DNA of 64,000 bases, from the NCBI RefSeq assembly GCF_026210795.1, contig NC_089429.1, positions 2,728,001 through 2,792,000 of the forward strand, written 5' to 3'. This stretch comes from Rhizophagus irregularis (Eukaryota). This document shows, piece after piece, positions 815-40,407 of the stretch (position 1 is the stretch's first letter; each line of letters opens with the position of its first letter). A program made the position numbers and the translations under genes. A model generated the notes under the pieces. That model had not been told where the DNA came from. It worked only from the letters and a program-made list of their open reading frames with translations, and did no database searches.

Positions 815-912
815 TCCGTAGCGATCTTCCTAACATGTGTAACTTCGTTTTAAGCCTATGTTCACTTTATGTAATATTAGTGCATAAAGATGCATAATTT
901 CCTTATATAGTA

Positions 913-1873
913 CAGTCAACTCCCTCTATAGTCACTTCCGTTATAGTCACATTCTACTATATAGTCACACCAGTTGAATGTTCAAAACACTTTATTATTA
1001 AAATCTATCCTATATAGTCACAATCTATCTATAGTCACTAACACACCTATCCTCAAAAATCTTATATTAAAAAGAACCGTTTATAATCACAGTTATATAA
1101 AGAATATATTAAATAACTTGGCATCTAATAATCGTACAAAGATGTACCATAGCTTGTTAGAATCGTCTCACTGAGACGAATCGAATGGTGGTAGTTTTAT
1201 CCTTTTACGATCACTGGCTGATGAGTTATTCAACAAAATGTTAAGCATCGGCATTATTATATTCCTTGATTTACGTTTACTGCGCCATTTAACATTTTGC
1301 TAAATATCTCGGTACCTAGTGATTGTAAAAAGACGATTAATAGCTCGTTGGAATCGCCTCATCAAGACGAATCTAATGGTGGTAAGCTCATCTCTCTATG
1401 ATCAATATTGACGGAGTTACTACTTAAAAACTATTTAATATTTTTTAATTTCGGAAATTGATCTAGTGATTGGATTTCGATGTATTTTATACCATTAGAT
1501 TCGTCGCATCAAGACGAATCGAATGGTAGTAAGATCGTCTCTCTAGGATCAATGTTGGCAGAGTTATTACACAAAAACCATTAATATTTTTTTAATTTCG
1601 GAAATTAATCTAGTGATTGGATTTCGATGTATTTTATACCATTAGAACCGTCTCATCAAGACGAATCGAATGGCGGTAAGATCATCTCTCTACGATTAAT
1701 ATTGGAGGAGTTACGATACAATAAAGTTTTAAGTATAATTTTGGCCAAAATTATGTTAATTTTTGGCCGGAATTATGATATACTAATATAAGAAATTTTT
1801 TATATAGTCACATCTCTTTATAATCACCAAATATGGACTGTTCCAAATGTGTGACTATAAAGAGAGTTGACTG
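913..1873. mobile_element. Tc1/mariner(pogo)-type MITE, 961 bp, copy 1
   Basis: 23-bp TIR CAGTCAACTC(C/T)CT(C/T)TATAGTCAC, TA on both sides, TATAGTCAC subterminal repeats, four internal palindromic cassettes; near-identical inverted copy at 37780-38740. Confidence 0.92.
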
Positions 1874-2108
1874 TATATATGTTACATAAAGTAAACATAG
1901 GCTTAAATCGAAGCTACATATGACAGGAAAATCGTTACAGAGCTAGAATTATGGTATTAGAATACAGTTATAATTTTAGTAAAAATTTTAATTTTGGTCA
2001 CGTGATATTATAACAGCCAATCAGAATTTTGGAATAGTTTTAGCATTTCGGAATTAAGTATTTTTCCTAAATTAATTTTACCATTTCAGTTTCGGCAAAT
2101 GGTAAAAT

Positions 2109-2912
2109 TAAAGCTCCTAATGGTTTAGACTAAACTGGAGAACTAATCGAAACTGGCTCAAAATTCGGTTCAGTTCAGTTCAGGTATTAGAACTGAAAAA
2201 CTGGCAGTTCAGTTCAGTTTAAGGGGAGAGTGTAATCACGTGACTTTTAATTGATTATCATGGCGCAAAAATTTTTTTGTGCTATTCAAAACGTCCATGT
2301 CTAATAAAACATTTGTAAATTACTAAATATTAAAAAAAATATATTATTTTCTTACCTTTTGGAACTTGAAAGTTTACCAGATATAGTTTTATTTTATTTA
2401 GACCTAAATATTATATTTTGGAGAAAATATCAAAATAAGTTCCAAAAAGGTTGCGAATCGCTTAGTGAAAGTTTAGAATCTCTCTACTAAAACATAATAT
2501 TATTTTTTTAACAAAAGCATTTTATCCAGTGGTCATATATAGACAAATTTATATTCATTGGATTCATCTCACTGAGATGCATCGAATGACGCTAAGATCA
2601 TGTCTCTAGTATTGATAGATAGCTTGATAATTTCAATTATTAATAAATCATTTAGCGCGAATTAATGTGTGATCTATCAATGCTAGAGACATAATCTTAT
2701 CACAATTTGACGCATCTCGTCAAAACAAATCCAATAATATATAGATCAACTTTGTACGATCACTAGATGAACAGCTATTCAATTTTTCGCATTTTTATAA
2801 AAATCAGATTGAACTGAACTGAACTGCCAGTTTTTTGGTTCAGTTCTTACGGATTTCAGTTTTAATCTGAACCATCTATAATCTAGACCAAACTAACCCA
2901 TTCAGAGCTTTA
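2109..2912. mobile_element. hAT-type MITE
   Basis: Ends TAAAGCTC/GAGCTTTA; perfect 8-bp TSD GGTAAAAT (2101-2108, 2913-2920); inverted subterminal (GTTCA)n/(TGAAC)n arrays. Confidence 0.8.
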
Positions 2913-3226
2913 GGTAAAATTCCCTAATTTCAGGAAGCAGCTTTATATATAGTCTCCTAAAGAGTAATTAAAGTAAAAATAAAAAACTAAAATAAAGAAG
3001 ATTATCAGTACACTAACACTCCTTAGATCATTCCCTGTGTTATATTTCAAGCATAGTAGATGCAATTATACTGATCAGACAACGAAAAGTGCATCCATTA
3101 TAAAAATCGATATCCAGTTCTGCTAGAAGAGCAGTTATCTGATAGCACCGTTAGATGACCTAGAAAATCTGAAAAGTGATTAAACCAATTTAATTCTTGA
3201 ACGATCAAATTCTTAATCCAATTCTT

Positions 3227-3688
3227 CACAGGTCGAAAAATAAAAAATCAGGCATCAATCAGTCACTAATCAGGCAGTTTGCTAACTTTTGATCCAGTAA
3301 TCAAAAAAGAATAAAATATAGCTCATTGGAATCGTCTCAACAAGAAGAATCTAATGGTAGTAAAATTACATCTCTAGAATTAATAGTTAATAAAAAATTA
3401 AATAAAATATAAATGATACATTTTTATTTTTATATTTTACTTAATTCTTATCAAGTATTAATTCTAGAAATGCAATTTTACTACCATTAGATTCGTTTTG
3501 TTGAAACAATTCCAATGAGCTATATTTCATCTTTTTTTGATTATTGAATCAAAAGTTAGAAAACTGCCTAATTGGTGACGATATTTGGTGAAAATGCTAA
3601 TTAGTCACCAATCAGTCACCAATCAGTTATCTGATTGGTGACTGATTTGTGACTGATTGATACCTGATTTTTCACTTTTCGACCTGTG
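3227..3688. mobile_element. CACTA/CMC-type MITE, almost fully palindromic
   Basis: ~40-bp TIR CACAGGTCGAAAA..TCAGTCAC; 3-bp TSD CTT on both sides. Confidence 0.85.
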
Positions 3689-3715
3689 CTTGTCAGTATC
3701 ACGTGATGGCTCGAT

Positions 3716-4480
3716 TTAGGTTAGAGGTGATAAAGTAGAAACGGGCAAATACAGTATATATGAGGACTTAGGCAAATTAGAAGGCTTTGAGTGGATTTTA
3801 AAAGTAGTAGAAATATTGACAGAAGTTCCCAGTGACTTTTTCATAGTTACGGGCATTCCAAACACGTTTGCACAACTTGCGAATAAAGTTATTATGTATA
3901 GTAGAGATAACTTTATATATAGAAGAACGTGGCACTGCCAGGTCAGAAAAAATATTGGAAAATAGTGTAGAATAAAACCATGCATAAGACCATGAGCAGA
4001 CCAACTTGTGGAAGAAAAGGTCTAACAGAGTAGTTGCGATAAACGTGTAAGATGCAGAGCAGGATCCACTTTATTAGCTTCACAGACTGCATCTTTAATT
4101 TTCTGGGAAAGATGATTTTGATATGAGGAGAGAATTGATTGCATGATTTGACAATGATTTTTACACATATAAATATGTGTCAAATCTTTGTATCATTGGA
4201 GGCAAGAACGTCATAATAAATTATCAATATATAAATCAGGCCACAAAATTTTTAATTTTTCCAGGATAGGTAAGTCATCCAGCAAAAGTTGAATTTAAAT
4301 GCGGAATGATGAGCTAAATTATCCATGGTATAAGACGTATTATTGATCGGATCATAAGCTAAAGTTTTCCAAGTAAGATCCCAATCAACGCATGTATATA
4401 TCAATTTGTTGTGATAAAATATTGGTGAAGCGAAAGCTGAAAAGACTAGCAAGCTGAGACATAAACCGTGAGTGGGCAGC
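3716..4480 (-). mobile_element. Degenerate non-LTR retrotransposon (LINE) 3' fragment, zf-RVT-like region
   Basis: Minus-strand translation VDWDLTWKTL..HSAFKF..WPDLY..SC..DLTHIYMC with stops and frameshifts, typical of the C-terminus of LINE RT proteins. Confidence 0.6.
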
Positions 4481-5903
4481 TTACAAATTTTCCCTTTAAG
4501 AAGATTACCTGACCAACTTCAAAATCTTAATTGTTGTTTTAATATTCTAATCTGAAGGTATAAATACCTTAATTTTTAAGTAGATAACCTTGGCTGGATC
4601 GTCACTATCAGTTCTTGTAATACCTGTGATCTTTTTGACAGTATATTCTTGAGTCAATTGCTCATAAACATAACAAAAAGTTGCAAGTTTTATGAGCATT
4701 ATTATTTTTTTTTTGGATTTAGAATTTTTTATTTATCAAAGATGTACGTAAATACAAGTAAAATTTTTCTTTTTTTTCTCAAGGTAAAAACTTCTAAATT
4801 TCTTATCCTGTGTACGTGAATTTTGTTCTTTCTCAGACTAAATAATAATATTTCTTTCATACTATTCACTTTTTTTTCCCAAAACTAAGTAAGCAGAGGT
4901 AATTTATATACTGTACAAGTTATTTTCGTGTAAATAATTATGAGAAATTACAGATTATTTACATAGTTAACGTTGTGTTATTAGAGAAGTGCAAAATAGA
5001 GGTCAAACGTGAAAAGTTCTTCATGCATGAGATGTTCAGAAAAGATTATGTATATATCTCATATGAGAGAACTCATTGTGTCATGATTTGATCATAAAAT
5101 TCCGTTTTTTTCCTAATATAAACATCCAAGTGTTTCCCATAAAAAACGTTAGTAGAATTTAAATTTATTTGTTGTAATTTTGTATATTACGAATTTTATT
5201 TTAATTTCTTACTTATTTAGTTTTAATTAAATTTACTATTTATTAATTTAAAAATTTTTTTTAAAAAATATAAATAAGACACGAATTCACAAGGAGGGTA
5301 GGTTCTATAATCGATTAGGAGTAGGAGTAGTAGTAGGAATAGTATTAGGATTATTAAATAGATTAATTAAATAGATTAATTAAATAGATTACTAAATAGA
5401 TTAATAGATTAAAGAGTATACCTGGCAAGTGTTTTGATGATCTTTCAATACTACATCACAGAAATTATACCTTTTTTATTAAAAACACTAACATGATAAA
5501 GTATAACACACACAAACCATACATAATAGGATAATAGAAAAAAAATAGTAGCTGTTTTCTATACTACGATAAATTGATAATACTGATCGGATTAAATTAC
5601 TGTTATAGTTCTTGATAAGAAAACTGGGGTTAAAAATCTTAATATATACATGATTTCCTCAAGAATTATGCGAAGATCAATGTTCAATAAAATTTTCGTA
5701 ACAGCATTTAATCATATGTAATTTATTCTTTCATAACATTTATATTTCATTAACCAATATTAATATTAATCAAGTTACATATTATATAAATTTCCGTTTT
5801 GTGTTATGGCTGGACTCCTGGTATATTCAATTGGGTCAAGATTATTAATAATAATTTTATTTAATAAATATTAATAAATATTCTTAATTAAAATATTACA
5901 TTC

Positions 5904-8900
5904 TTAATCATTTTTCTCCCTTTTCTTTTCTTCTTTTTCTTCATCTTCAGGTATAATAACTTTTCCAACTAAAACTTCACTTAATAAAAATAATAAAATC
6001 ATAAACAAAACAAATAAACTACTAATAACAAAATGACTTATAGTAGTACCGATTTCTAACCAACTACCATCATCCCTAACCAAGTAGAAAAAATTTAAAG
6101 TCATAATATCAGATATTGATAATACTAGTAAAAATAAACTAAACGGTGATAATCTAATTGATTTGTTTAATATATAAAATACTGATGATACGATAAAAAA
6201 AGGTATTAATATTTTTAATAATAATAATCCTCCCATTAAGAACGGATTAAATATTGTTGTAAGTCTATAAACACTTTGTAATGAAAATGAACTCAAACTT
6301 GCTACATTTCCTGTACCAAAAAATCCTACTTTAATAAAAAATAAAAATATCAATGAAATTCTTGAATCTCTCATTTCTAATTTACGATGGCTTTCTTGTT
6401 CTTGTTGTTTTTGTTTTGATTGTTCAAATAAAAATAATTTACGTTCAATTTCTAACCAAAGCAAAACTGTTTGTGTTAAGAAATAATAAAATAATACTTC
6501 ATACGAAATACTGAGTATAACAAATAATGGTGCAAATGCTAAAAAAAGTGTTGTAAGTCTTTTTAAATAGTGTTGTTTTCTTCTCAATCCATAAAAGAAT
6601 GGCGTTGCCGTGGAAATAGCTGTTTTAAAGAAACATTTGCTCAATAATAATCCATTAATCCAATTCAAGATAAAAATGCATACTTACCTAATATTATCCA
6701 GGCAGCATATTGGTTTAAAATCGGAAGACCAACTCTCCATTTCAATTTATTTGTCGTATCATAAACTATTATAATACTCAAAGCCACCAATAATAACTAT
6801 AAATAATGTAGAAGATTAGATAATAAATAAAAATTGTAAGTTTATATAAGGTTGAATTCTTACCTGAAATATTATCATTGTCTTTGAATCAGAATCGTTT
6901 CCTATTATATATTTAGAACTTTTAACCATCGAATTGATTCCTGTAATGAGAATCAAGATTCCACCATAAACCCTAAAAGGAATTCAAGAAAATATTCTAG
7001 AATCACAAAAAAAGTAAAGAAAAATATTGTATTAATAAACAATCAAATTTAAAAGATACTTACACCAACAAAATATCTTCTCCTTTTTCCACAGGCAATA
7101 ATGTAAAAATACTCGATGCCAAACATGATATTGACCAATAAAGCAAAAGTAATTTATTTTCGGATCGAAAACTTGATGGCATGATTAGTGGCCATAATAC
7201 TCCCAATACAAAACACCCGCTCAAAATGCTACGTTCAAAATAACTGTATACCTATAAGAAAAAAAAATAGATAAATCATTATTTTATTTAAGACATGTGT
7301 ATATATTAGAATTCACTTACGAAAATTTCCAACGCAATAATATGTCCAATTATGTATCCTGCAAGTATAAAAGGACTTCGCGACCCTAAAGCTAATTTAC
7401 AACTTTCCGTGAAGGTTTCATAATCTAGCAAACTGTTCCAACAAAAATAAACAGCAAATATTACGTATGTGTAATATGTTGCAGGTGATCCTTGTATGTA
7501 CATTATTGACATTAATATAGTTAAAGATATTATAGCTAGTATGTTAACCTAAATAAAATTACAAAATTAATTAATATTTGAAGACAATTAAATATTAATA
7601 ATAAATTAAGAACGTACATATTTAGCTATTCGATCAGAATGTCTATTTGAACTATTATTGTTCGGTAAGCAATATTCTTTTAAAGTGTGTTTTAAACTAT
7701 AAAAAATCCAACCCAGATATCCAACCGTCACGATAGATCTTAACATTAGCCAATCATACCTATAAGATAAAAGTTTTTAGTAACAACAACTCGACGAGGA
7801 TAAATAAAATCACAAACACAAATCTTAAAGATATTTACGTTTGGAAATATCTCAATCCTTCCAGAGACAATTGTATCAAAATTTCACACATGATTTCAGC
7901 TTCTTCATATTGTTCAGTATCAATAAGTTCCTGAATTTTACTTAGTAATATTTCCCTATTATGAGTAGAATTGCTGAGTGGTGCAAATGGCTTAAACATT
8001 ATTTCCGTTCTTTTCTTTAATTCTAATATAAAATAAAAAATAATTTATACTTTCTTAAAATATGCTTTCTAATTAAAAATAAATTATATATGCTTACCAT
8101 ATTTAACTTGATACTGTTCAGATATTTCTTTAGCATTGACAAATAAACTTTGTGCTTTAAATAAAGGTGTATTATTAAGATATACTAAAGGTAATTCTCC
8201 TACAGAATTGACTGGATAATTAATTCCGATTAGGGAAGCCTATTGATGGATGTACTTGTTAAATGAATAAAATTTTTAATTATAATAAAGATGTTTGGAT
8301 TACAACACAACATACCATAAACGGAGCAATATCTGCTTGTAAAACATCATTTCGCTGAACTTCATTTAAATACCAATCAGCAGAAAATTCATCATGCCCA
8401 GTTGGATGTGTCTTATTAGGTTTATTCACGCCAGCGCCCCATGCAATTATCGGAGTACGCGTGTTATCTGGATGTCCATCTCCATGATTGCCTAAATTGT
8501 GAAATCTTAAGAAAATTTTTCTTCGAATAATTAGGTTAATTAATCTTTAATGATCCCACCTCTATTACTCATCCCGTGATCTGCAGTAAAAACGTAAGAT
8601 GTTTTTCCATCATGTCCATAATATTCTTCAATTAGTCTAACAGCCTTGTTTATTCCCTCATCAACAACTTTAATATTATCTATATACTCTTTAGAATGGG
8701 GACCATAAACATGTCCATTTGTATCCAATCCCAATAAATGTAAAAATATAACAATTTGGTCATCATGAAGTTGCTGATATAATTTAGCATTAGATGATGA
8801 ATTTGTAAAAAGTTGAGCTAATTGATCAAATACCCAAATATCCAACTCCTTCGCATCTAATAATATATGTATATATAAATTGTTCTAGTTTAAAAAAATC

Positions 8901-9711
8901 AAAAAAAAAAATATATATCAGACTATAAAAAATATTTCTTTTTACCCTTAGCAAAATTTTCAGATTCATGACCATACATAAAAGTTTCAACTTTATCAGG
9001 ATCTGAAGCTCCATCGGCAAACATTGGCAATATGTCAGGTGATCCAAATGACCATGTATGTCTGCTTTGATTGAAGACTGAATCAAATTCTACGGGATTA
9101 GATTTCCATCCTAATCAATTAATGAATAAGTTAATAAATTCACAATAAGATATTTAATTAAATTAACAATTAAAAAAAACTTCTTTTTTATAAAACCTTT
9201 AGTTACAGCACTGACATCTTCATAGAATCCTGCAATAAGAGCAACATGTCCGGGTCTCGATTCTGTAGGTACTCGAGTATGGGAAACTCCAAAAGTACCA
9301 TGGTTCAAAATGATATCTCTCAAAAACGGTGCTTTTGTGATTGGTTGATCTGATTCATCCGAATAAAGCTGATATAATTTGTCTGCTCTTAATCCATCAC
9401 CTAAAATATCCTTTTAATATACAATCTTGGTGTATTTATCGAAACAAGTATAATTTTACAAAATTATAACAATTTACCTATTATAAGCACAAGTCTATTC
9501 GCTGGTGGTGGTAAGTCAACCTGTTGTAATGTAATTATTAAAAATATAAATAAATAAAAATAACAGTTTATAATACAATAACTACCTTATGTGTCGTCAT
9601 TCCATGCACCAGAGGCGAAGTAAAATATATATCAAATATACTCCATATGTATGCCACGTGAAAAATTATTCCTATAAATAAAATATTTCTTGAAGTTGCA
9701 AGGTTTGTCAT
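5904..9711 (-). CDS. MCD4: GPI ethanolamine phosphate transferase 1 (Mcd4/PIG-N), multi-exon
   Basis: ATG at 9711; [90 protein letters not shown]; canonical GT-AG introns. Confidence 0.97.
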
Positions 9712-10093
9712 AACTATATGAAATTTATGGAGAAAAGATCAAATTTTACGCTTACGCCTATTTATAGTCAATTTTTTTAAAGGACTAATGTGTTTGGATT
9801 TGATTGGTGGATAAAAAAAACTAAATTTCATAATTTTTTTTTTCGTTTCTGGACATTTTTTGGTTTAAAAAAAAAAATGATGAATTTTACGATCCTTTTT
9901 GAAACTAGAGATTCGATGATATATTACAGTACCAATTATTTATAAAATCAAAAAAATTAACGAAATATTTTGTGATAAGGATTATGATTTTAACTTTATT
10001 ATTTTATTAATTAAAACAAACATTTTTTTTAATACTTATTATTAAATTAGATATTCTAGGATTTACTACTTTTCAGTCATGAAATTATTTTTA

Positions 10094-10647
10094 TCACTTG
10101 TCATGAAAAATTTCACCTTTGTCAGTTTCAGTATAAATTTCTTTCTCGTTAATAGTTTGTTCGGGCCCTTCTTCATCGAGTACTCTAGCAAGAGGGACTA
10201 TTGGTAATTTCAAACCAACCCGATTTGCTGTCAATTCAATACGTTTTTCTACAGAATATCCATGAGCTGGATTGTTTAATTCCAAGAGCTCCTTAAATAT
10301 ATGTGGTTTTTTTTAATTAATTATGTAAAACGATGATTTAAAACCAAATTTTACTTACATTATATTTTCGGCTACTTCTCAAGAAACATAATATATCTAG
10401 CGCGTATTTGGTCGAATTTTCAATCTCTTCTTTATTTGATAAGTCGCGATTTTTTTGATATGTACTTATTACTTCTTCTCTCCATAATTTATTATTATTC
10501 CGATATGTGAACTTTCATTGTGAATAAAAGAAATTTTTTAATAAAATTTTCATGGGAAATCATGAGATTTTTTTTTTTAAATACCTGCTTGTCAACTTCT
10601 TTTAATAATTGGCGATACGTTGACAAAATTAACTGTTTACTGCTCAT
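10094..10647 (-). CDS. FMC1: Mitochondrial ATP synthase assembly factor FMC1-like (LYR family), 3 exons
   Basis: Spliced MSSKQLILSTYRQLLKEVDKQ|FTYRNNNKLWREE..FLRSSRKYN|ELLELNNPAHGYSVEKRIELTANRVGLKLP; LYR-like N-terminus and Fmc1-type C-terminal motif. Confidence 0.85.
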
Positions 10648-10753
10648 TTTTTTTTAAAAAAAAAAATTTTCCAACGATCATGTCACGTTCTTATATGGGA
10701 TCGACAATGCATAATCGATAAATTTCACAGGCTTTTCCAAATGTTTGAAAAAA

Positions 10754-11750
10754 ATGTTACCGAAATCGATAAGTTATCTACGCGTACTAAAAGTATCTTA
10801 TATAAAATTAAGTTCTTCTATCTATTCAACAAATATTTATAAAAGAAAATATTCTTTATCAACATTGTCAAAATCAATAACGCAAACGAGAACACAAACA
10901 CGAAAACTCTTTCCTTTAACCAGAATTGTTAAAGATTTTTCATTTATATTTCCTTTATTTAATACTATAAAAAGATCAATATCTAGTTTAGATACTCCGA
11001 AAGAGATAGAACAAGCTGAACGATGGTTAAAAAAATTTACAAAAGAAAAAATTCCAAAAGGTAAAAAATTATTTATTCATTAATGCGATTCTTATTTTGT
11101 TTTTCTTTACATTAAAAAAAGAATTTGATTTTGTTAGATTTGATAACATTTACTTTTGCACGGAGTAGTGGACCTGGAGGACAAAATGTGAATAAAGGTA
11201 AATTAATAATATTTCAGTTTTTTTTAATATTCATCTTTCATTTAATGTTTAATCTTTTCTTATTCAAAGTTAATACAAAGGTTGATATGAGATTTAATTT
11301 AAATGAAGCAACATGGATACCAGAATACGCTAGGAAAAAACTAGCAATTCAAGTAAATTCCTTTTAATTATAATAATACATATCCTCCAACAATAAACTG
11401 ACCATATTTTAAAAAATAGGAAGCAAGTCGACTTAATAAAAAGGGAGAATTCATGATAACTTCAGATAAATCCCGTTCTCAAGTTAAAAACATTGAAGAT
11501 TGTGTTGATAAATTGTATGAAATTATTTTGAAAGCTGCTGAAATACCAAAAGCCCCAAGTGAAGAAACCCTGAAAAGAATCGAACAATTGTATGTATAAT
11601 AATATTTAAAAAAAACAGATGGATAGATATGTTTTATAATTTTACTTTTAATGTATGAGCAGGAAGAAAGCTGAAAACAATAGAAGAAGAACGGACAAAC
11701 AATATAGATCAGAAAGAAAATCTTCTCGTCGCACCAAAGATTATGATTAA
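10754..11750 (+). CDS. Mitochondrial peptidyl-tRNA hydrolase ICT1/PTH4-like (RF-1 GGQ domain), 5 exons
   Basis: [40 protein letters not shown] and a basic C-tail; Ser/Arg-rich N-terminal presequence. Confidence 0.93.
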
Positions 11751-14370: not shown

Positions 14371-14472
14371 ACATGATACAATACATGATACAATACATGA
14401 TACAATTACATGATACAATACATGATACAATACATGATACAATTACATGATACAATGAATTATAATACATGA
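14371..14472. repeat. 12-13 bp minisatellite (ACATGATACAAT[T])n
   Basis: About 7-8 directly visible tandem copies. Confidence 0.9.
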
Positions 14473-21689: not shown

Positions 21690-23249
21690 CTAATTAAAAT
21701 CTAAAAAATATCTATATATTGATGTCCATTTAATATCAATTTTTTTTTTATCATATCTAAGTATTAATTTTCTATTTTTTGTCATTTCATCAATTTCACT
21801 TTTTAATACATCAACACATATATAATAATAGAAATCTAAATTAATTAAATTATCAATATAATTTCTCATAATTTCTTCTAAAAGATTAAGTTCAATTACT
21901 CCTTCAAATGAAAGAGATTTTAAAGATTTAGGAAGTGATCTTATAAAAATTAATATTAATTCTTCAGATAAATTAAAATTATAATATATTGAAGCAAATA
22001 AAATAATTTTTTGTAGATTTGGACAATTATTACAAAAAGATTTGAACTCATTTAACACTCCATCAACGTTCTCAAGATTATCACGTTCAAATCTTTTCAT
22101 ATAACCAAAAATATGTTCCAATTTTAATCCAATCAATGTAAGATTTTGACAATATAATGATAAAGTATCAAGGATTGATTTTAAATAATTTTGTCCTTCC
22201 CTTAATTCTCTATATGAAATTATCTTTAATTCCTTCAAATTATTACTATGATTCTTTAAAAATTCCATAATGTAATCTAGCCATTTAAAAAATTTTTCTT
22301 CATAACGTTTACCAGATCCAGAAATTATAAAACAATCTAATAATGAGAAAGAAAATAATTTTGGTAGGTAAATATCTTTTAAGCATATCATTTGATCAAA
22401 ATCAATAATCATAGAATCTAAATGTAATTCTTCAAGATTTGAACAATTAAATAAAAAATTCAAATCAGTTTGTTCTCCATTAAAACAACCTTTAATCATT
22501 ATATACTTTATAGAATGAGATTCGGAAAGTTTAAAGAAAAGTCCTCTCCATTTTTCCATATGCCTATTATAATCATCACTAAACATAGGAGGGTTCACAT
22601 TTAAGTTAAAATATTCCAAATTATTTTGAACAGAAATAAATTCAATAAGATCCTCAAAAAATTTCAAATTATTTTTATATTCTTCAAACAAAAATTCAAC
22701 GGTAAGATCTTTGATATTTTTAAAATAAATTGATAAATCAGAAAAAGATAAATTGAATCCATAAGTATTAAACTTCAACTTTGTAATATGATTAAGTAAC
22801 ATTTGTAAATTTGGTAAAGTAAAAATATTTTTACAAAGTTTTTTTTTAAAATTTCCAGAAAATGTTAATTCATCTAATCTTTTTGTTTTCATAAAAATAG
22901 TTTTGCTTATTGCCATGATATATTCATTATCATAAATTAAACTACATAATAAAGATATGTCAAATTGTTGAATAAACCATACATAATTAAACATAGTTTT
23001 AGTTGGAATATTTTCAAGTCCTAAATTGATTCTCTCTTGTAATGAGATTTGTGAAAGAAGGATTGGAATTATTTTTTTCATTTTCGTTGTTTCAAGATTA
23101 TGACCAAATGGTCTTCTCCACAAGACGGGGATGACATTTTCACACCAATTTTTATTTACAAATAATGATGAAAATAAAGAATCAATATCATCATCAAGGT
23201 TATTAAAAATGATTTGTAATATTTCATTTAAAAATGGGTTTACGGTCAT
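21690..23249 (-). CDS. F-box/leucine-rich repeat protein (AMF-expanded type), intronless
   Basis: N-terminal LNEILQIIFNNL..SLFSSLFVNKNWCENVIPVLWRRPF followed by degenerate LRRs. Confidence 0.85.
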   Translation of the reverse strand: MTVNPFLNEILQIIFNNLDDDIDSLFSSLFVNKNWCENVIPVLWRRPFGHNLETTKMKKIIPILLSQISLQERINLGLENIPTKTMFNYVWFIQQFDISLLCSLIYDNEYIMAISKTIFMKTKRLDELTFSGNFKKKLCKNIFTLPNLQMLLNHITKLKFNTYGFNLSFSDLSIYFKNIKDLTVEFLFEEYKNNLKFFEDLIEFISVQNNLEYFNLNVNPPMFSDDYNRHMEKWRGLFFKLSESHSIKYIMIKGCFNGEQTDLNFLFNCSNLEELHLDSMIIDFDQMICLKDIYLPKLFSFSLLDCFIISGSGKRYEEKFFKWLDYIMEFLKNHSNNLKELKIISYRELREGQNYLKSILDTLSLYCQNLTLIGLKLEHIFGYMKRFERDNLENVDGVLNEFKSFCNNCPNLQKIILFASIYYNFNLSEELILIFIRSLPKSLKSLSFEGVIELNLLEEIMRNYIDNLINLDFYYYICVDVLKSEIDEMTKNRKLILRYDKKKIDIKWTSIYRYFLDFN

Positions 23250-23495
23250 GTTTTATGTTTTCGGAGATTATGTTTTCGGAGATATTTATAGAGGATCAAT
23301 CGGTCAAAAAAATTATTTTTTCTGATGATTGATAATCAAGATAATATATAATAGTGCGCTTGCACGTGACTAGTAAATTATATGTTTTTAATTTATTTGA
23401 ATTCATAATTGATGTTTGATACAGTATTAATAATAGTATGATATATATATAATGACTTGAAATATAATATTATATAATAATGACTAAATTATTGG

Positions 23496-29291: not shown

Positions 29292-30040
29292 ATGAATTTT
29301 GATGATTCTTTTCGTCGAATGCGACGTACATTCGACGACTTCTTTAATGACCCGTGCTATCGTAAACCTGCGATTGATGGTATGTAAAAATCCTTTTTAA
29401 AAAGAAGTAATCTACGGTCGATTAACTATACTAGATGTTGAATTTTGATGGCGCAGCACTTTGATAAAATTTTGATTATCTGTTATACATCATATAGTTT
29501 ATAACAAGTCTGATGAATATGTTTTGCACGCTGATGTTCCGGTAAGGAAATTTATTAATTGTTAATTATAATTTTAAAAGTTCTTTAATTACTTATATCT
29601 TATATTTTTTAAAATAGGGAATACAAAAATCTGATGTTAATGTTGAACTTGTAGGTGACAATAACCTAGTCATCGAAGGTGAATTTAAACCATATAAAGG
29701 TTTCGATAGAAATAAATTACTTGTGAATGAACGTGATTGTGGAAAATTCCGGTAAATTTTTATTTTTTAAAGCCTTTTGATGAATACTTATTATAACTGA
29801 TTTATTTAATATTTGCAAATTTAATGATTTGTTAGTCGAGAGATTTTTTTATCTTGTGATCTACAAGTTGATAAGATGTCTGCTGTGATTGAAAATGGAA
29901 TCTTGGAAGTTAGGGTAAATTAAATGTGTAAATTTGATCAGATAATTAAATGGGACTAATTACTATTTGATTGTTAAATTTAATAGCTTCCTAAAGCTCA
30001 ACGAACCAGCTCTACCGGTAGAAAGATCGAGATCAATTAA
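29292..30040 (+). CDS. Small heat shock protein (HSP20/alpha-crystallin), 5 exons, absent from the ORF track
   Basis: Spliced MNFDDSFRRMRRTFDDFF..PAIDVYNKSDEYVLHADVPGIQKSDVNVE..ERDCGKFRREI..SAVIENGILEVRLPK..RKIEIN*. Confidence 0.92.
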
Positions 30041-30269
30041 TTATTATGAGAGTGGTTTTCTAGATGACACTTATAGAATATGAAATATGTAAATCAATAG
30101 CATAGCTGATAGCTCTCATTTAATTTTACACAAATTGGTCTAAATATTTGTTTACAAATAATTGAATGTGTTATTTTAAGAATGTTTTCAACCAATAAAT
30201 CCCTTGTAATTTACCATGTCCAGTTTATGATTTTTTAATTCAATATCTATATTTGTCATTGTTTATTTT

Positions 30270-31720
30270 TTTTCGCCCTAAAACATTCGATCAGTGTTGA
30301 CAAGCATGGGAAAGGTTGTATATTATAATTGTTTTGAATACAAGATAATATTTAATTAATAATTTTTAATTTAATTTTTAGATGGTGTCGTAATTCTGCT
30401 AATGGAATTTCCTTAGATGCACGACCAACAGTTATTGCTTTTGTTAGAAAGCTTAAATTAGTTATTACTATTGAAGAATTTAATCAATTAGAACAAGATT
30501 TTATTAAATGGATTTTAACTAACAACTTAACAAAATTACTTTCTTACTATAAAAAAGAATGGCAGTCATGCCAACAACTTTGGGCAAATATTTATAAACC
30601 AAAATTTGTTACAGGTTGGATGGTTAATGAGACAAATAATTTAATAGAAAGATTTTTTTCTGTGAGTATAGTAATTATAAATGTAATATTATCTTCTTAA
30701 TTATATAATTTACTAAATTAATTATTTAATTCCTAGACATTAAAGTGGAAATTTTTGCATGGAAAGAAAAACAAAAGGATAGACATGCTAATAAATATTT
30801 TAATAAATCAATGCTCTGATTTTTTTACTATTCGATTTTACACTCAAATTAATCAGCAAATTTTTAATGAAAAAGTAAGTAACAGTATTTATTGTTTTAA
30901 ATAATTTGTTCTAATATTAATTTTTATTTTTATTTTTATTTTTGATAGAAATTTAATGAAATTAAATCTCGTGAACTTAAAGCACGTGAAATTGCAGAAA
31001 ATAATACTGTATGATTGACATTATAGATCCAATGAATGGATATTGTATTGTTTAAAAGTCAATCAAATTCGTCCAAAGTATATGAGGTATATTTATGTGA
31101 TGGATCTTATTGTAACTGTCAAGACCAGTCTTAAACATATCCGTGCAGCGGCTAGTGTTCTTGGAGGGTTAGAAATATGGAATCTATCATTAGATTCTGA
31201 AAGGATAGCATTTTATCAAAATAACAACATCAATATACCTTAAATTCAAATACTGCTAATCAATTTCATGAAGAAACTCCGGATCAAAGTCAAAATTCAT
31301 TAAATTCAAACGCTAATCCTAATCAACTTTTATGTGAAGAACTGGAAGGATTTAAAAATAATTATACAAAGAATACAAAATATACCAAATACAGACAATG
31401 GAATTGAAATAAAAAAGCAAGCAGAGTTTCAAATGAAAGAAGTAAGAAAATTTTATTCATTTTTTGTAGTTACCTAAATATATTATTAATAAAATTTTTG
31501 TTAAAGTTTTTTAGATCGTAATAAACTAAAAATTACACCACACTCATTTACAAGATCACACAGAACAAATAAAACCCAAGAAAACAAGGAAAATTCTTCT
31601 TGGATACCAAATAAAATTCGTGGGAAAAGACCTACAAATGTTTTGGGAAAAAATAAGTTAAATGTTAAAAGAAGAAAGGACGATAATGATATTATCGAAA
31701 ATGCACTTAAAGAAAGGTAA
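30270..31720 (+). pseudogene. MULE-type transposase remnant with SWIM finger
   Basis: EWQSCQQLWA..ETNNLIERFFS|TLKWKFLHGKKNKRIDMLINIL; YEVYLCDGSYCNCQD..KHIRAA; frameshifts and introns. Confidence 0.7.
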
Positions 31721-32108
31721 TAATTTAATTTGTACAGTAGAGAAAAATTACTTTTAGCTAATCTAACGTAATCTTTACTTGTTACATACAGTACACAGAT
31801 TTAATAACTACATTTGGAATCTTGAGTTTTATTTGCAACGCGTTTAATTTTTCAAACAAAAACTTTAATAAACGTTAAAGTCTTATTCCTTTAAACTAAA
31901 TTTGAAACAGGAATAAAAATATCTAATACGATCACTAATTCACAAAAAATCCGTGGCTCAGCTCAATGCTGATAAGCTGATTATCATTATGACAATTTGT
32001 GACACCTGCTTTGTTATAATACGCGTCTTTTGCTAACAAACAAATTCTAGCGCGTCTATTCTTTTTTACCTTTTGCATAATAGCAGAATAACTTTTTTAC
32101 ACTTTAAA

Positions 32109-33111
32109 ATGGAGGGACCAGTGGAAGATGGAAAAAAACAACCCTTTCCTCGTCACAGGAACTCTGGTAAACTACTGTGTATGGTGACGTCGTAGATAAT
32201 GATGAAATATTCACCTTTATTTTGCATGACCTGCAGGAAAATCAGATAACTGACAAGTACTTTGATTCGAAAAACTCTATGGAGTGGGATATCGTCGAGT
32301 TCCACCATTTTTTATAGAAAAAAACAAAGATAGACCGGAGAAGCTTGATTACAAGACGGCTGCAGACAAACTCACCAGGTGTTTGCGAGATATTGTGAGC
32401 ACATCAGTCAGTGCCGATACGATAAGGCAGGCATTAATTCTTCAGGAAAAGCTAAGGTGAGTGTAGATTTTTCTTGTACATATGTGATGTTGCAACTGGA
32501 TAGAAGTTCTCTTAGGCCGTGGCCATATCAACGGTTTAGTTGATTTGGCTCTCTACAACTACGCGGGAATTCTGCTGATGTACCGTTTATGATCTGTTGA
32601 TCGTTGTGGACGGCTAGCTTTTAGCAATAAGGTACTTTAATTGTATTAGCAACTGCGACTACGCGGGAATTCTGCTGATGAACTGTTGATCGTCGTGGCT
32701 GGTTGTAGCACTTTATTATTTGTAATTATATATTATTAAACTAACAACTACATAGCGAGCACGTCGAAAAGGAGATAAGATGTGGGTATCCGTTGAAGTC
32801 GAGCTAAAAGAGAAGAAATTAACAAATCTTCAGATATGCATGAGAAATGTTATCGACATTTTATAATAGAGCTTACATACGAAATTATTTTACTGCAAAA
32901 TAAGTTACATGGACTACTACAGGCAACGCAGGAGAGTCAAAATTATGCAAGTACGTTAAATCGCGGTGCCTTGAATAGGCTAGAGGATGTCATTGATTCA
33001 AATAAGCATAAGAGTGAACCTATTGATTTGAAGAGAAAGATATCTAAATCATCTATAAGTGACCATAATAATAATGACAGAAAAATATTTACACATGTAT
33101 TATTTGCTTAG
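32109..33111 (+). pseudogene. Degenerate gene remnant of unknown family
   Basis: YFDSKNSMEWDIVEF..TRCLRDIVS exon-like block with frameshifts, GT-AG intron and broken 3' exon. Confidence 0.35.
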
Positions 33112-33679
33112 AAAAATCTTCACGATCAGGAGAAAGTAATTAATGTGATGACCAATGAGCATCGCGGTATAAAAGAAAAGCAATTCACATGAATGAATGT
33201 AACCTACTGTTAAAACAGTAAAACCCATTACATAAACAATACATGTAATGATCATAAAGCATTTAAAGTTTCGAGTTTACTCAATTAGACCCAATTATTC
33301 GATTATCGAAAATCGAAAATCGAATTTTAGAATTCAAAAGATTTTAATCGCGTTAATCGATTTCCAATCCCTAATAGGAATAAACCAAAAGATCTTTTTT
33401 ACAGATATCATACATGAAATAAGTCAGACATAATAATCTTCGCATACTGTATATTCAGAAGAATAATGCACTGTACAACTCATTAACTCAATTAAGTGTT
33501 AACCTTTTTTACCTTTTAAACATTGTTTTATCTTATAAAATACTGTTGGGATAGAAACATGATAAGATTTTGATTACAAATACATTGTGTATGATACTAT
33601 TAACTTATGATGAAATACAAAATATGAAAAAAACTATCAGAATAGTAAATTGATTTTGCACGCCCAAATTTCACAATTT

Positions 33680-35371
33680 TTAGAATTTTCTTGGTTTAAC
33701 CTTGACAATGAAATCTTCAGCAGTGTTAATATATTCACGTCTAAGTTTAAGTGGTGCGTTGATATCAGCCATTTCAATATCATATTTTCTGAAATATATC
33801 ATTAGGGATTTTAATTCAATAATCGCCAACTTTTTTCCCGGACATATTCTGATCCCTCCTCCAAACATAGGGAAAACATTTTTCGCTTTTTGTTTTTCGA
33901 GTAAATATTTGTCACTTTCTTCAATCTTGTACCACCTATCAGGATCGAATTTATCAGGGTCGGTCCAATTATCCTTGTGTTTCATTATTGCAGAATAAAG
34001 CATTAGAAATCGAGTTGACGCTGGCCAGTCGTATCCTCCGACATTATCACTTTCGGTATTTAACCGATGCATCATGAACGAAACAGGGCAATTACGAAAC
34101 ACTTCGTTGATAACTGCCTCGCAATATTGTAATTCTTCAAGGTTTTCATATGTTACAAGTTTTGTTAAGTCATTTCCGAGAACTGCATCCAATTCACGTC
34201 GTACTTTTTGTTTCACTTCAGGATAACGTCCGAGATAATATACAATGAAGCAAAACACATTAGCCACCTATATGATTAAGATTAAAAAGAGGTGAATTTA
34301 TAATCTTAATGTTTTCTTAAATATAAAACTCTTATTTACAGTTTCAGTTCCACCAAGCAAACTATCGAGTACCATTCCACGAATCTCTCTGTCAGTCGCT
34401 GGTCTTAATAAATCAGCACCGGAACGTTTTACCGTGTTGATATCACGTGGCGTATTCGCGGTTATATAGGATGTCACCATGTCGTGACGAAGAGGCTGAT
34501 CTAACGGTGTATTCTCAATTTCAGCTTTTCTTTCTTTAACAACTTTACCTAACTTGTTAAGCAAATAATCCTTGTTTTCCAAATAACTTTTCCACTTTTC
34601 GCGAATAAATGGAACATAATGAAGCACAAACTGTTTACAAACTGTAAGATAAATCAGTCCCCTTACGTAAGTTTCAACTGACTTAACGAACTTATCAGAT
34701 TCCTCAACCGTTTCAACCGTTTCTACTTTTTTTCCTTTTAAAGTATTGTCACTTTCAAGAATGGAATTATAATAAGAAGCAACAGAATTATTTTTTATGC
34801 CGGTTGTAACTTTGAAAATTATCTCGTTTGTAAATCTATGCATCCATCTACTAAGATCTAATTCATAATTTTCTCCAAGGTCAACCCAATAAGATTCCAT
34901 TTCTTTACATAATACGTTTACCCATTCAACAGCTTGATAATTAAAATTCGGTGTCAAAATAGATTGATCAAAAAATTGACGATTAAACTTCCAAGATTCA
35001 AAATCATTGTTACTGCCTATTCCTACTCCATATAACTCATATTCAATAAATGCTTCATCTGTGACAAATCTAGTGAAGAAGTTAGATTTCGTTGAAGGCA
35101 TATTCAACTTATCAGTCAAATCTGCTCTACATAATACGATATTACGTTCACCTGCCAAATATATTTCGAACATGTCTCCGTACTTTTTATGCATTGACGT
35201 AAAAAATTCATTAAATCCCATTCCAATACTTAGATGAAAGTTACCAATAAGTGGAAGTGGGAATGGACCGGGTAGAGGGTTCTTACGGGTAAAATAACGA
35301 TAATAGAATCGAGATACATAGATAACTATCAAAGTTACCAAAAGAGAAGAAATCCCAAATAAAGAAATCAT
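33680..35371 (-). CDS. Cytochrome P450, 2 exons
   Basis: TM anchor + PGPFPLPLIGN; I-helix GGTET at the intron (~34268-34319); EVFR, FDPDRW, heme motif FGGGIRICPG. Confidence 0.95.
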
Positions 35372-36376
35372 TGTTAGTTGAACTATTGGAAAAGCGTTTC
35401 GTGTGAAATCTGAGATGAACTGTAATCTGGAATCGATTTTTATAGTTTTGTAGCATGAATAATGATATTTTTTTGGTTTAACAACAATTTTTCATTATCA
35501 TTGTACAGTACAACGATAAATAAAACTATCCGGAATACATATCATACATAGTTAAGATCGCTCATAAATAATTATCAACTGTTTATTAGTCCGGAGCGGT
35601 CTATCAATGTTAATCGGAGTCGATGCTGGTTGGGCCTTCACCGTTACATAAAAACCTCAATAAAGCAAGAACTGGATCGTTGATTTTTTTTTAGTTAAGA
35701 TCGCTCCGGATTTAACACGGCTTTGCCGTTCCCAAAAACTAAGGAGAAAAAATATGATAGTACCTTATAAAATGTTTATTAATTGTACAGTGTAAATAAT
35801 TACATAATAATTATATAAAATAACGTAATGGTTATTGCCAACTGTAAATAGCAACCAAATTTTTTCTTAGAAGCAAAATTATACCCATGATCATCATAGC
35901 TGATTACACTGATTTCGCCTGTATTCTAAGAATAACTATGATATACATTTATCTGCTAATTAAACATAGAGTCACTTATCACATCAGTATTATGTATATA
36001 CATCGATGGATTTTTTTGTAAATTATTCCACCGGTATAAAAAAAGTATAAAAAAGTATAAGATCCATCGGCGTATATGCCATACACAACGAGATAAACCT
36101 GTTATTCCATGGGTATCTAATAAATACTCCATATAAACTGATGCCTTGGGGGAGGGGAGCATCGGTGAATATTTCAGTTATTCATTGATACCCATGGAAT
36201 AACAAGTATATATTAAGACTATTGATTATAAGACATTAAAACTTTCGGATGCTAGACATACCTCAATAAGGAAAATTCCATTATCTAGACAAATGCATCT
36301 TTTTTGCCAATCACGATTAACAATATTCTAGAGTTTTTTGACATCTACTGCTATGAAAATGATGTTGTGCCCCAAT

Positions 36377-36994
36377 CCCTGTAAAAAAAGTCAATCCATT
36401 TTTTTTATTCCATCTTTTTTCCATAAAAGGAGGCCCGTTAAAGCGGGGTAGAATCACGTGATTTAAAATTATTATGATTTGATAAATTATTTATAAACTA
36501 AAATCAAAGTGAACTTGAAAATCATTAAATAAGTGTATTTCTGCCTGCTCTGCAAGTTTACTTAGGAAGGAAAAGTGGATTTTGAACAATGTTTTTAACT
36601 TTATATATGAGCAAACGAACTTTGCTGATCATACCCACAAAAGGATAGATCAATTTTAACGAAATTGAAAAAATTGAATAAATCGAAAACGGTGTTCTAA
36701 ACCTCATTCTGTGCTCTAAGTAAACTTGTAGAACAGGTCAAAATGCACTTAATATATGTTTATTTGGAAGGTTTCATATATAATAAAGAGTTTTATTTTA
36801 AAAAAAGAAAAATTTCGAAAGTCACGTGATTCTGCCCTGCTTTAGCGGTCCTCCATAAAAGGCTCATATTTCCAGAATTAATAGCTTTATATCACAGAAT
36901 TTATTGAATTATTTACATTTTCTGTGAATGAATCTGTGAAAGGCTCATTTTTACGGAGTTTTTACAGAAATAACGGATAAAATTTTTTATAGGG
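36377..36994. mobile_element. CACTA/CMC-like MITE with a nested insertion
   Basis: Ends CCCTGTAAAAAA / TTTTTTATAGGG; 3-bp TSD AAT. Confidence 0.65.
36429..36854. mobile_element. TIR MITE nested in 36377-36994
   Basis: ~36-bp TIR GGAGG(C/A)CCG(T/C)TAAAGC(G/A)GGG(T/C)AGAATCACGTGA; duplicated target ATAAAA (parses as 6, 8 or 10 bp). Confidence 0.85.
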
Positions 36995-37779
36995 AATGTA
37001 ATTTGATATTTTTGGAAGAAGACATCCATTCAAGAAAGGGAGCGATATTTGATCATAGGTTCCTCATTAAGAATTTTCTTGGTTATCTGACATCTAGCCT
37101 AGAATTTGCGATTTTTCTTAAATTCTCAAGCATGTTTTAGTTTTATAATTCTTTCTAAGAATTCAGCATGTCCTGGTAAGGAAGTGAAAAATATTTTTGA
37201 TGTAACAATATCTAATGCTAATAACAATCAAGTATCTTCACTCATAGAGGCAATTAGAACCCATCATCTAAATCAATTTTAAAATACAGGTTGGCTTTAT
37301 ATAAGATCAGCTTCATATCTGATAGCATCGTAATTCACAACTTAAGTAACAATAAATACTTCAAAGTAGATGGCACAATAAGAATGGAACTGCAAGACAC
37401 AATTTTTAGTCATTTTTCCATTCAGCCTCAATGTATCTATTCCAGTAAATGTTATCGTGTACGCTTCTACTAAAATGGTACCAGAAGTATTAAGCATCAT
37501 ATAACAGTAATATATTCGCAAATTTTTTTTGTATTAGTTGTTTCTCCAACAATGATTTATTTTTTAAATAAAACATATATTATGTTCTTTGTCATAAATC
37601 TCAATAAATGTTATAATCTAGGGGTAGATAAAATAAATAGGGGCTAACTTAAATGTTACACAGGCTAAGCTTTTATAAATTGGTTATATAACCGAATTTT
37701 TATATTAAAATTTCACTTTTTTTTATTTTTTTGATACGTACGTATAGAAAAGCAGTCAATTTCAGAAGTCAAAGTTGCA

Positions 37780-38740
37780 CAGTCAACTCTCTTTATAGTC
37801 ACACATTTGGGACAGTCCATATTTGGTGATTATAAAGAGATGTGACTATATAAAAAATTTCTTATATTAGTATATCATAATTCCGGCCAAAAATTAACAT
37901 AATTTTAGCTAAAATTATACTCAAAACTTTATTGTATCGTAACTCCGCCAATATTAATCGTAGAGAGATGATCTTACCGCCATTCGATTCGTCTTGATGA
38001 GACGGTTCTAATGGTATAAAATACATTGAAATCCAATCACTAGATTAATTTTCAAAATTAAAAAAATATTAATGGTTTTTGTGTAATAACTCTGCCAATA
38101 TTGATCCTAGAGAGACAATCTTACTACCATTCAATTCGTCTTAATGCGACGAATCTAATGGTATAAAATAAATTGAAATCCAATCACTAGATCAATTTCC
38201 GAAATTAAAAAATATTAAATGGTTTTTAAGTAGTAACTCCGTCGATATTGATCACAGAGAGATGAGCTTACCACCATTCGATTCGTCTTGATGAGGCGAT
38301 TCCAACGAGCTATTAATCGTCTTTTTACAATCACTAGGTACCGAGAAATTTAGCAAAATGTTAAATGGCGCAGTAAACGTAAATCAAGAAATATAATAAT
38401 ACCGATGCTTAACATTTTGTTGAATAACTCATCAGCCAGTGATCGCAAAAGGATAAAACTACCACCATTCGATTCATCTCAGTGAGATGATTCTAACAAG
38501 CTATGATACATCTTTGTACAATTATTAAATGCCAAGTTATTTAATATATTCTTTATATAACTGTGATTATAAACGGTTCTTTTTAATATAAGATTTTTGA
38601 GGATAGGTGTGATAGTGACTATAGATAGATTGTGACTATATAGGATAGTTTTTAATAATAAAGTGTTTTGAACATTCAACTGGTGTGACTATATAGTAGA
38701 ATATAACTATAACGGGAGTGACTATAGAGGGAGTTGACTG
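37780..38740. mobile_element. Tc1/mariner(pogo)-type MITE, 961 bp, copy 2 (inverted)
   Basis: Reverse complement of 913-1873 with the same length; flanks CA/TA. Confidence 0.92.
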
Positions 38741-39088
38741 TATATACTAGCTCTATATAAGCAATTAAAATTAGATCACAAAGTTAAAATTATATTCTTT
38801 TTTTTTTGACATTTCAAGAAGTATATATTAAATGTTTTATGTAAAATGTTTTAAATTAGCTTTTTCTTTTTATTATTTTCAAATGTGTAATAAAATTTTA
38901 TATGTTTTTAAGGTATTTAAACAGCTGATCCAAAATTTAAACAATATAGAAAAAAATATTTTCATTACTGATTTATCATTTTTTTTTTTCACAGATAATA
39001 TTGATTATCAGAAGATTTTTTACTTTGAACATAAAGTAATACCATATTCATCCAAAAATAAACAACAACTTTTGTATGTAATGCAAGC

Positions 39089-39364
39089 TAGTGTTCCGCA
39101 TGAATCAAATTTCTCCTCTGAAATTTGATTCGATTCGGACTCGATTCAGACTCGATTCAACCCCCAAAAATTATTATCTCAGGATCCAGTGATCCAATTT
39201 TGATGATCTATTTTTAATCGATAGGCCTCGTTGCTCTGATCAAAATAAAAAAATGATCGTTGAAATCGGACTGCTAGATCAAAAGATATTTGCAAAATAC
39301 GTTTTTCTTATTCGGAAGCAATCAGGGTCACACCGTGTCATGAATCGATTCGTGCGGAACACTA
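39089..39364. mobile_element. hAT-type MITE
   Basis: TIR TAGTGTTCCGCA(T/C)GAATC; perfect 8-bp TSD ATGCAAGC. Confidence 0.9.
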
Positions 39365-39602
39365 ATGCAAGCCAACTGGCCAAAATTTAGTAATGCAGGC
39401 CAAAAAATTCCATAATTCTGTCTATGTTACTTATTTTCTGATAAATATGGTATTTAATTTTAATAGTAAACATATAGTAATTTATTTTATATTATGACTA
39501 TACATAAAACTGAAATTGGTTAATTTTAACCTCTGAAATGGTCGAAATGGTTGAAATGATTTTGACTTGAACCCCTCTAAAAGTCGAAAGTCGAAATGGT
39601 CA

Positions 39603-40407
39603 AAATTACGTCATAGTCATATGATTTTATAGTAAACAATAATATTAAAATTCAAAGTTAACGAACTTCGCATCCAGTAATTCGATTTTTATGATCTTTA
39701 CACAGTTAGATTTAGCTCATTGAGAGAATCCCAATGATATGTATTTCATATTTGTAGCATCAATATTGACAGAGTTATTCACATTTAAAATTGGTATTAA
39801 ATAGTCTTATAATTTTTATAGTAAACAATAATTTTAAAATTTAAAGTTAACGATCTCCGCATCCAGTAATTCGATTTTTATGATCTTTACATAGTTAGAT
39901 TCAGCTCATTGAGAGAATCCCAATGATATGTATTTCATATTTGTAGCATCAATATTGACAGAGTTATTCACATTTAAAATTGGTATTAAATAGTCTTATA
40001 ATTTTTATAGTAAACAATAATTTTAAAATTTAAAGTTAACGATCTCCGCATCCAGTGAATCGATTTTTATGATCTTTACGCGGTTGGATTCAGCTCATCG
40101 AGAGGATTCCAATGATATATATTTCATATTTGTAGCATTAATATTGACGGAGTTATTTACATTTAAAATTTGGTATTAAATAGTCTTATAATTTTTATAG
40201 TAAACAATAATTTTAAAATTCAAAGTTAACGATCTTAGCATCCAGTGAATCGATTTTTATGATCTTTACGCGGTTGGATTCAGCTCATAGAGAGGATTCC
40301 AATGATATGTATTTCATATCTGTAGCATCAATATTGACAGAGTTATTTACGTTTAAAATTTTATATTAAATTATAATTATAAAAATCACATGACTATAAT
40401 GTAATTT
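39603..40407. repeat. Four tandem 189-190 bp units bounded by ~27-bp inverted repeats
   Basis: CATCCAGT recurs at 39671, 39860, 40049 and 40239; AAATTACGTCATAGTCATATGATTTT pairs with AAAATCACATGACTATAATGTAATTT. Confidence 0.85.

Follow-up and report, generated by a model that had tools for sequence, protein, structure and literature searches.

The 64,000-nucleotide stretch of the Rhizophagus irregularis genome analysed here (contig NC_089429.1, positions 2,728,001 to 2,792,000; hereafter the window, with positions counted from its first letter) contains repeated copies of a 117-bp dyad-symmetric sequence, termed the cassette, which lies inside transposable elements (TEs) of unrelated superfamilies. 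Judged from sequence comparison, the cassette is a real, TE-borne cis-element whose hosts, once relatives in metagenome contigs are included, span both class I and class II elements, and the nearest known phenomena include no long rigid dyad that both classes have in common. The explanation favoured here, to which we give about an even chance, is that the cassette would act as a two-fold-symmetric, rigid binding platform for a host protein complex that raises the mobility of its carrier.

A first-pass annotation of the window had described about 17 copies of one unit of about 105 bp; the count was upheld, at 16 full copies and one decayed copy, and the length was corrected to 117 bp. A loose regular expression for the 23-bp core returned 18 sites in the window, 16 of them full cassette units, and the other two (13569 and 24412) were rejected as they have no arms. 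A profile built from the eight pogo-type copies alone recovered all eight full copies in other hosts (E 1.6e-9 to 6.1e-14), and profiles from non-pogo hosts likewise matched the cassettes of other hosts, some more weakly. The decayed copy (39176-39289) was found with 24 bits and a 1-bp gap (E 7e-8 in a 4.8-kb search) and was not picked up by the pogo-only profile at E<1. Outside the two cassette clusters the best score in the window was 5.3 bits, and 10 local shuffles of the window reached at most 5.8 bits against the cassette profile. With a 62-bp pattern allowing up to 3 mismatches, 17 matches were obtained in the window as opposed to none in 100 dinucleotide shuffles.

The unit extends 58 bp to either side of a single central base. 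Counted outwards from that base, mirrored conserved boxes lie at about 2-7, 10-17, 26-28, 39-46 and 52-57 bp, and the central 33 bp form a dyad in which the middle 3 bp vary. Some single bases are invariant, and conservation drops to background beyond about 59 bp from the centre, so that the edges are sharp. Cassettes occur in either orientation, as single, tandem or inverted copies, with a spacing of 137-199 bp that is often 137-140 bp. All 16 full window copies, which were found by the 23-bp core only, align without gaps, and no gap was placed by MAFFT in an alignment of 24 units from the window and metagenome contigs, a result that holds by construction for the right arms of loci found by pattern, and not for left arms, second units or window copies. 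This set leaves out unit L001-23, which is cut by the contig end, and the unit of L022, and uses the window copy centred at 1509 in place of its twin in L007. Mean identity between loci was 61% inside the cassette and 31-32% in the 60-bp flanks (276, 275 and 276 pairs). Similarity does not track host superfamily, with identities of 0.618 within superfamilies (89 pairs) and 0.610 between them (187 pairs), and nearest neighbours cross classes (pogo-LTR 76%, pogo-hAT 77%, where LTR denotes long terminal repeat elements).

Relatives were obtained from one exact-pattern scan of metagenome contigs, which returned 25 loci (L001-L025) of 25-40% GC, all 25 with a profile match. L007 and L024 carry the pogo-type element of the window at 97%, and all 25 are probably from Glomeromycota. 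Together, window and metagenome hold 60 cassette units, 26 of them non-redundant below 88% identity. Further hosts in the metagenome include several more hAT families, CATG-ended elements (L018 and L019, with TATA on both sides) and two LTR-like families. Several of the MITEs (miniature inverted-repeat transposable elements) barely exceed their ends plus the cassette, as in L019 (371 bp) and at window position 39089 (276 bp). In L008, L009 and L013, a purine tract and a TGTTA start precede one cassette by about 50 bp, and in L013 the repeat is followed by a primer-binding-site-like (PBS-like) sequence. L010 is laid out in the same way, with its cassette about 30 bp inside. The cassette lies near the 5' end of both LTR families and is inverted between them. 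Just before the purine tract, the open reading frames (ORFs) upstream of the two families are homologous (L008:1300-1700 and L010:830-1070; E 1e-6). As no reverse transcriptase or integrase was seen in these four contigs, the LTR assignment rests on the landmarks (purine tract, TGTTA and PBS-like sequence). Two neighbouring features were also recorded. An ORF for a poxvirus A32-like ATPase adjoins the cassette-bearing MITE of L018 (1049-1753), which suggests an endogenous Maverick-like or viral element, and in L017 (1-301) the end of a cassette-bearing hAT MITE abuts a reverse-transcriptase frame, a junction that probably reflects insertion of the MITE into a Gypsy element.

All six carriers in the window lie in two TE-dense patches of about 3 kb, a clustering that would fit the cassette attracting further insertions. 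Their superfamily labels follow general rules on element ends and target-site duplications (TSDs). The first patch holds a MITE at 913-1873 with CAGTCAACTC ends and a TA TSD, whose CAGTC ends are pogo-like. It carries four plus-strand cassettes, centred at 1171 (1113-1229), 1362 (1304-1420), 1509 (1451-1567) and 1656 (1598-1714), the last two of which have lost the outermost left box, the one at 1509 being a 147-bp tandem unit. A second, inverted copy of this MITE at 37780-38740 (96.6% identical; flanked by CA on one side and TA on the other, a difference of one base in the TSD) carries the mirrored minus-strand cassettes centred at 37997 (37939-38055), 38144 (38086-38202), 38291 (38233-38349) and 38482 (38424-38540). 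Inverted pairs are found in a hAT MITE at 2109-2912 (TAAAGCTC ends, 8-bp TSD GGTAAAAT), centred at 2572 (2514-2630, plus strand) and 2720 (2662-2778, minus strand), and in a MITE at 3227-3688 (CACAG ends, 3-bp TSD CTT), centred at 3340 (3282-3398, plus strand) and 3501 (3443-3559, minus strand). The ends and TSD of the latter support CMC in the broad sense and not CACTA specifically.

In the second patch, the 276-bp hAT MITE at 39089-39364 (TAGTGTTC ends, 8-bp TSD ATGCAAGC) carries the decayed cassette on the minus strand, detected by profile, with its core eroded and its outer boxes kept; the ends of this MITE match those of a transposase-coding hAT in L005 at 22 of 23 nt. The remaining carrier, at 39503-40407 (limits approximate, right end not found), contains a 189-bp array (39613-40371) with plus-strand cassettes centred at 39720 (39662-39778), 39909 (39851-39967), 40098 (40040-40156) and 40288 (40230-40346), and its left end is 79% identical over 71 nt to the CATG-ended element of L019. 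The first-pass annotation had placed four units in each of two mirrored Tc1-type MITEs, inverted pairs in a hAT and a CACTA MITE, a degenerate copy near 39184 and the unit as core of the 189-bp array, and every one of these placements was borne out; of its labels, Tc1-type was refined by the pogo-like ends and CACTA gave way to CMC in the broad sense. Its statement that the hosts differ in terminal inverted repeats and TSDs also proved correct (TA; 8 bp at 2109-2912 and 39089-39364; CACAG with 3 bp), and its view that descent from one transposon is insufficient was supported; the hosts include even LTR elements.

No termini or TSD belonging to the cassette itself were found. Of 25 units, 13, 6, 1 and 0 were bordered by direct repeats of 3, 4, 5 and 8 bp, respectively, compared with 12.8, 5.2, 1.7 and 0.1 expected; with border repeats at chance level, the cassette is no self-standing element, and the proposal of an independently spreading unit was not sustained. 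The one route of spread observed is passive, the cassette travelling inside a hAT MITE that nests in another element. In all five loci of one family (L003, L005, L006, L012 and L015), an inverted cassette pair sits in a 369-bp hAT MITE whose 8-bp TSD is perfect. This MITE is nested at the 5' end of a hAT of 4 kb, which codes for BED-finger, RNase-H-like and dimerisation domains. At one end the flanks of this composite differ among L005, L006 and L012, at the other between L005 and L015, and the two flanks in L005 make no TSD. Nesting followed by deletion is therefore a demonstrated route of capture, on the evidence of the nested 369-bp MITE and of window MITE 39089, which has the same ends and a decayed cassette; the retention of the cassette alone afterwards is the part requiring selection. 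In the other hosts the flanks are unrelated and no donor ends are shared (identity 31-32%). The possibility that every copy lies within a single nested TE thus held for one family of five loci and failed for the other hosts.

Selection was examined in six families of copies. Variable columns outside CpG sites amounted to 2.0% inside the cassette and 2.5% outside it (p 0.41), and variable CpG columns to 12.6% of 159 inside and 11.8% of 187 outside (p 0.87); among copies, the variation of CpG columns exceeds that of other columns 5 to 6 times. TEs of the genus Rhizophagus are reported to be CG-methylated in the part of PMC8647823 consulted. The observed/expected CpG ratio of the cassette was nevertheless 1.52, as opposed to 0.37-0.88 in four neighbouring MITE segments. 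Such a high ratio despite fast CpG change among copies points to purging in lineages that are still transposing, and purifying selection would therefore act in mobile lineages and not for the host.

Under the favoured reading of a binding platform, the cassette would be read by a protein as double-stranded DNA, and, since no transposase is common to the carriers, that protein would be encoded by the host or shared in some other way. As MITEs need no transcription, the benefit would act at the level of DNA or chromatin, through accessibility, bending or synapsis; a host complex would open, bend or tether the DNA and so aid both MITE excision and LTR activity. A symmetric double-stranded platform is the simplest common function, given that MITEs need no RNA or protein of their own, that no transposase is shared and that orientation is free. 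Lineages that still transpose would be under selection, and inserted copies would drift. In favour of this reading are the gap-free alignment at a mean identity of only 61%, the mirrored and blocky conservation, the similarity that crosses superfamilies, the high CpG ratio, the MITEs that consist of little besides ends and cassette, and the inversion of the cassette between the two LTR families. The cassette is internal and non-terminal and is kept by non-autonomous elements, as would be the case for an enhancer of the Ost35 type. The protein-binding site with dyad symmetry suggested in the first-pass annotation is in keeping with this, since the unit appears to behave as such a site rather than as a hairpin, there being no consensus fold.

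Several observations weigh against the binding platform. The cassette is not required, as MITE 39089 has an eroded core despite a perfect TSD, the left arm of the L022 cassette is shifted, and the MITE-like elements of the window at 550-814, 36429-36854 and 42318-42845 have no cassette. The fixed length stems in part from the selection of hits, because the metagenome pattern fixed the right-arm spacing and the position weight matrix was ungapped. Inserted copies have neither shielding from CpG decay nor lower divergence, which disfavours host selection and an anti-methylation role. Pairing within units is also slightly high (66.2% versus 63.6%, reached in 0 of 500 shuffles).

The same facts may be read neutrally. 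The cassette could be a relic, the internal cargo of an old, abundant MITE that was spread by serial nesting and ectopic recombination and whose donor ends were lost later, an account which we consider unlikely while granting it appreciable weight, as nesting was shown in five of five loci of one family, inserted copies decay neutrally and the carriers are grouped in two TE-dense patches. At 61% identity, however, indels, ragged ends and CpG loss would be expected of a relic, whereas sharp edges, kept spacing and mirrored, blocky conservation are seen, and no common donor ends lie beside the units of other hosts (flanks 31-32%). A dyad core, short central spacer and accessory boxes at fixed spacing also make up a layout like that of a recombinase site. 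With its outer boxes as accessory sites, the cassette might accordingly serve site-specific recombination or resolution, for instance by a tyrosine recombinase of the Crypton type, or act in the manner of a replication origin; the 33-bp central dyad with its variable centre, the mixed left/right combinations of arms and a total length resembling resolvase sites are in line with this. It is nonetheless rather improbable, as no recombinase was found beside the cassette among the 19 ORFs scanned by Pfam (not all ORFs, and most loci are short), no match was found in prokaryote genomes, phages or plasmids, and the inverted pairs stay fixed among five copies. There was no sign of crossovers or of a linkage break at the centre in a Mantel test of 24 units, which has low power (r 0.06-0.18 for adjacent same-arm segments and 0.19-0.34 for mirrored ones).

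That the cassette acts as a hairpin or cruciform, a structured RNA or a small-RNA precursor is held to be very unlikely. The pairing excess noted above is accompanied by arm covariation slightly above shuffles (1 of 500; p 0.03 after removal of the three most symmetric units) and by own-arm pairing of 32.5 against 31.4 when permuted (p 0.03; p 0.07 without one near-perfect palindrome), and the inverted pairs give long hairpins that match microRNA models below gathering scores. The consensus fold energy was, however, -0.41 kcal/mol on one strand and 0.0 kcal/mol on the other, giving no consensus RNA fold; G-U and A-C oppositions were alike (123 and 106, p 0.29), giving no strand bias; certain positions lack a pair in 23 of the 24 units; and the median DNA fold z was -1.4. 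Of the arm covariation for which the first-pass annotation had proposed a test, a slight excess was therefore found and a consensus fold was not. The small pairing excess and the correlation of mirrored segments fit occasional arm-to-arm correction or relatedness. Rfam gave no match in the window and 43 weak matches in 10 loci, all below gathering, and its microRNA matches were set aside as generic hairpins, their alignments having no common sequence motif. Hammerhead-like and Pol III B-box-like readings, made by eye, were dropped as the positions are not conserved. Least probable of all, by a shade, is a sequence that positions nucleosomes or sub-nucleosomes. The repeat lengths of 147 and 189 bp and the odd-length dyad would suit it, but a spacing that is often 137-140 bp is too tight for two nucleosomes and the invariant single bases suggest direct readout. 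Nucleosome phasing would call for an A/T period of about 10.2 bp that is out of phase with the dyad. The A/T signal, in phase with the dyad, peaks at a period of 11.3 (amplitude 3.64, compared with -0.97 at 10.2) and was discarded as not significant (p 0.21).

Outside the fungal contigs, two exact cassette patterns gave no match in prokaryote genomes, and no blastn match to the cassette was obtained in phages and plasmids at E 1. Four patterns had no match in IMG/VR, while two core patterns found a single contig there (L026), an ORF of which is a 100% match to an ichnovirus protein (wasp polydnavirus segment). L026 holds 39 bp matching the cassette core and inner left arm (31 bits), the outer boxes being absent. 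By rough estimate the bare core is expected about once by chance in IMG/VR, and the extra matched letters in L026 lower that chance. A looser pattern returned 32 loci, one of them L026 again; besides L026, 30 loci could be scored and none of them had outer arms, all of the outer scores being negative, compared with +12 to +84 for fungal members scored on their own model. The core match of L026 is thus a post-hoc hint of a wider range. Similar long palindromes may also occur in plant and animal repeat libraries. In a bolder version, which is doubtful as a whole, the cassette would be a portable cis-module older than the fungal-animal split, a 117-bp dyad read by a conserved eukaryotic complex and captured and traded by many class I and class II superfamilies because it licenses their DNA for mobilisation, and the core of L026 would be its animal form. 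About 300 bp from that core, L026 also contains a 164-bp CACGG-ended, MITE-like inverted repeat (2474-2637).

Other features of the window were recorded alongside the cassettes. A three-level nest occupies 550-1941, in which a hAT MITE at 550-814 (CAGTGTTG ends, TSD 6/8, no cassette) lies inside the left arm of a foldback with arms at 815-877 and 1879-1941, the pogo-type MITE being at the foldback centre; older foldback, MITE-like elements without a cassette lie at 36429-36854 and 42318-42845. Unrelated hosts repeatedly have the motif ACTGCGCC and CCAAT boxes in the vicinity of their cassettes (window 1279 and 38367; L009, L010, L011 and L023), and TCACGTGA was found six times in the window, four of these within 656-3699. 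A 167-bp tandem array at 47342-47838 (2.7 copies, 97%) is unrelated to the cassette. An inverted duplication of about 81% (57183-58028 and 62184-63127) overlaps a 383-aa ORF (57874-59025) with no Pfam match, and an open frame of 520 aa at 21690-23252 likewise has no Pfam match. The GC content per 2 kb is 22-34%, and coding pieces identified by Pfam scan are those of PIG-N, BTB, arrestin, a chromate transporter and P450. The chromate transporter has 95% identity to a Rhizophagus protein, which agrees with an arbuscular mycorrhizal fungus as the source.

Among known systems, the precedent is the Stowaway element Ost35, in which an internal MITE sequence raises excision (PMC3660474). The likeness lies in a non-terminal MITE sequence, the excision boost being the function proposed for the cassette; the difference is that Ost35 concerns one family and was shown by assay, and the portions consulted of PMC3660474 and PMC12595863 mention no long dyad across superfamilies. 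The internal region of the coral CMITE (PMC2872659) measures about 75 bp and occurs only in piggyBac/TTAA elements, whereas the cassette spans several superfamilies and LTR elements; the printed CMITE consensus differs from the cassette by eye (no tool alignment), and the paper nowhere uses the word palindrome. MITE-amplified sites for E2F, bZIP60, PIF3 and TCP (PMC5950925, in part) resemble the cassette in that TEs multiply a site for a host protein, but they are short motifs with known factors, whereas the cassette is a rigid dyad of 117 bp whose inserted copies give no indication of host selection. The targets of VANDAL/VANC (PMC5735166, in part) are alike in being TE-internal, often tandem, protein-bound and helpful to propagation; they vary between related TEs and their protein is TE-encoded, whereas the cassette is common to unrelated TEs and its CpG decay is not reduced. 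No published description of the cassette was found in literature searches that did not cover subscription papers, supplements or repeat databases; the sequence may already be present in TE libraries supplementing the fungal TE papers or in Repbase or Dfam entries. PMC11952901 has no occurrence of MITE, palindrom or motif, the parts seen of PMC8647823 and PMC7805219 do not describe the cassette, and two 10-mer matches in the literature were put down to chance. Prokaryotic res, att, dif and lox sites, the Mu enhancer and the strong gyrase site are similarly long multi-box sites with fixed spacing that organise a nucleoprotein complex; the cassette differs in its whole-site dyad and in that prokaryote genomes, phages and plasmids gave no sequence match and no cognate enzyme was seen.

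The interiors of MITEs are commonly regarded as family-specific filler. That elements as different as pogo, hAT, CMC, CATG-ended and LTR types keep one long rigid site suggests instead a dependency of transposition on the host that they have in common, and the cassette offers a precise bait for the factor concerned, which makes the reason for strong MITE amplification testable. It could also confound TE classification in mycorrhizal fungi through false superfamily links and, if the mobility boost is true, could serve as a part for transposon vectors.

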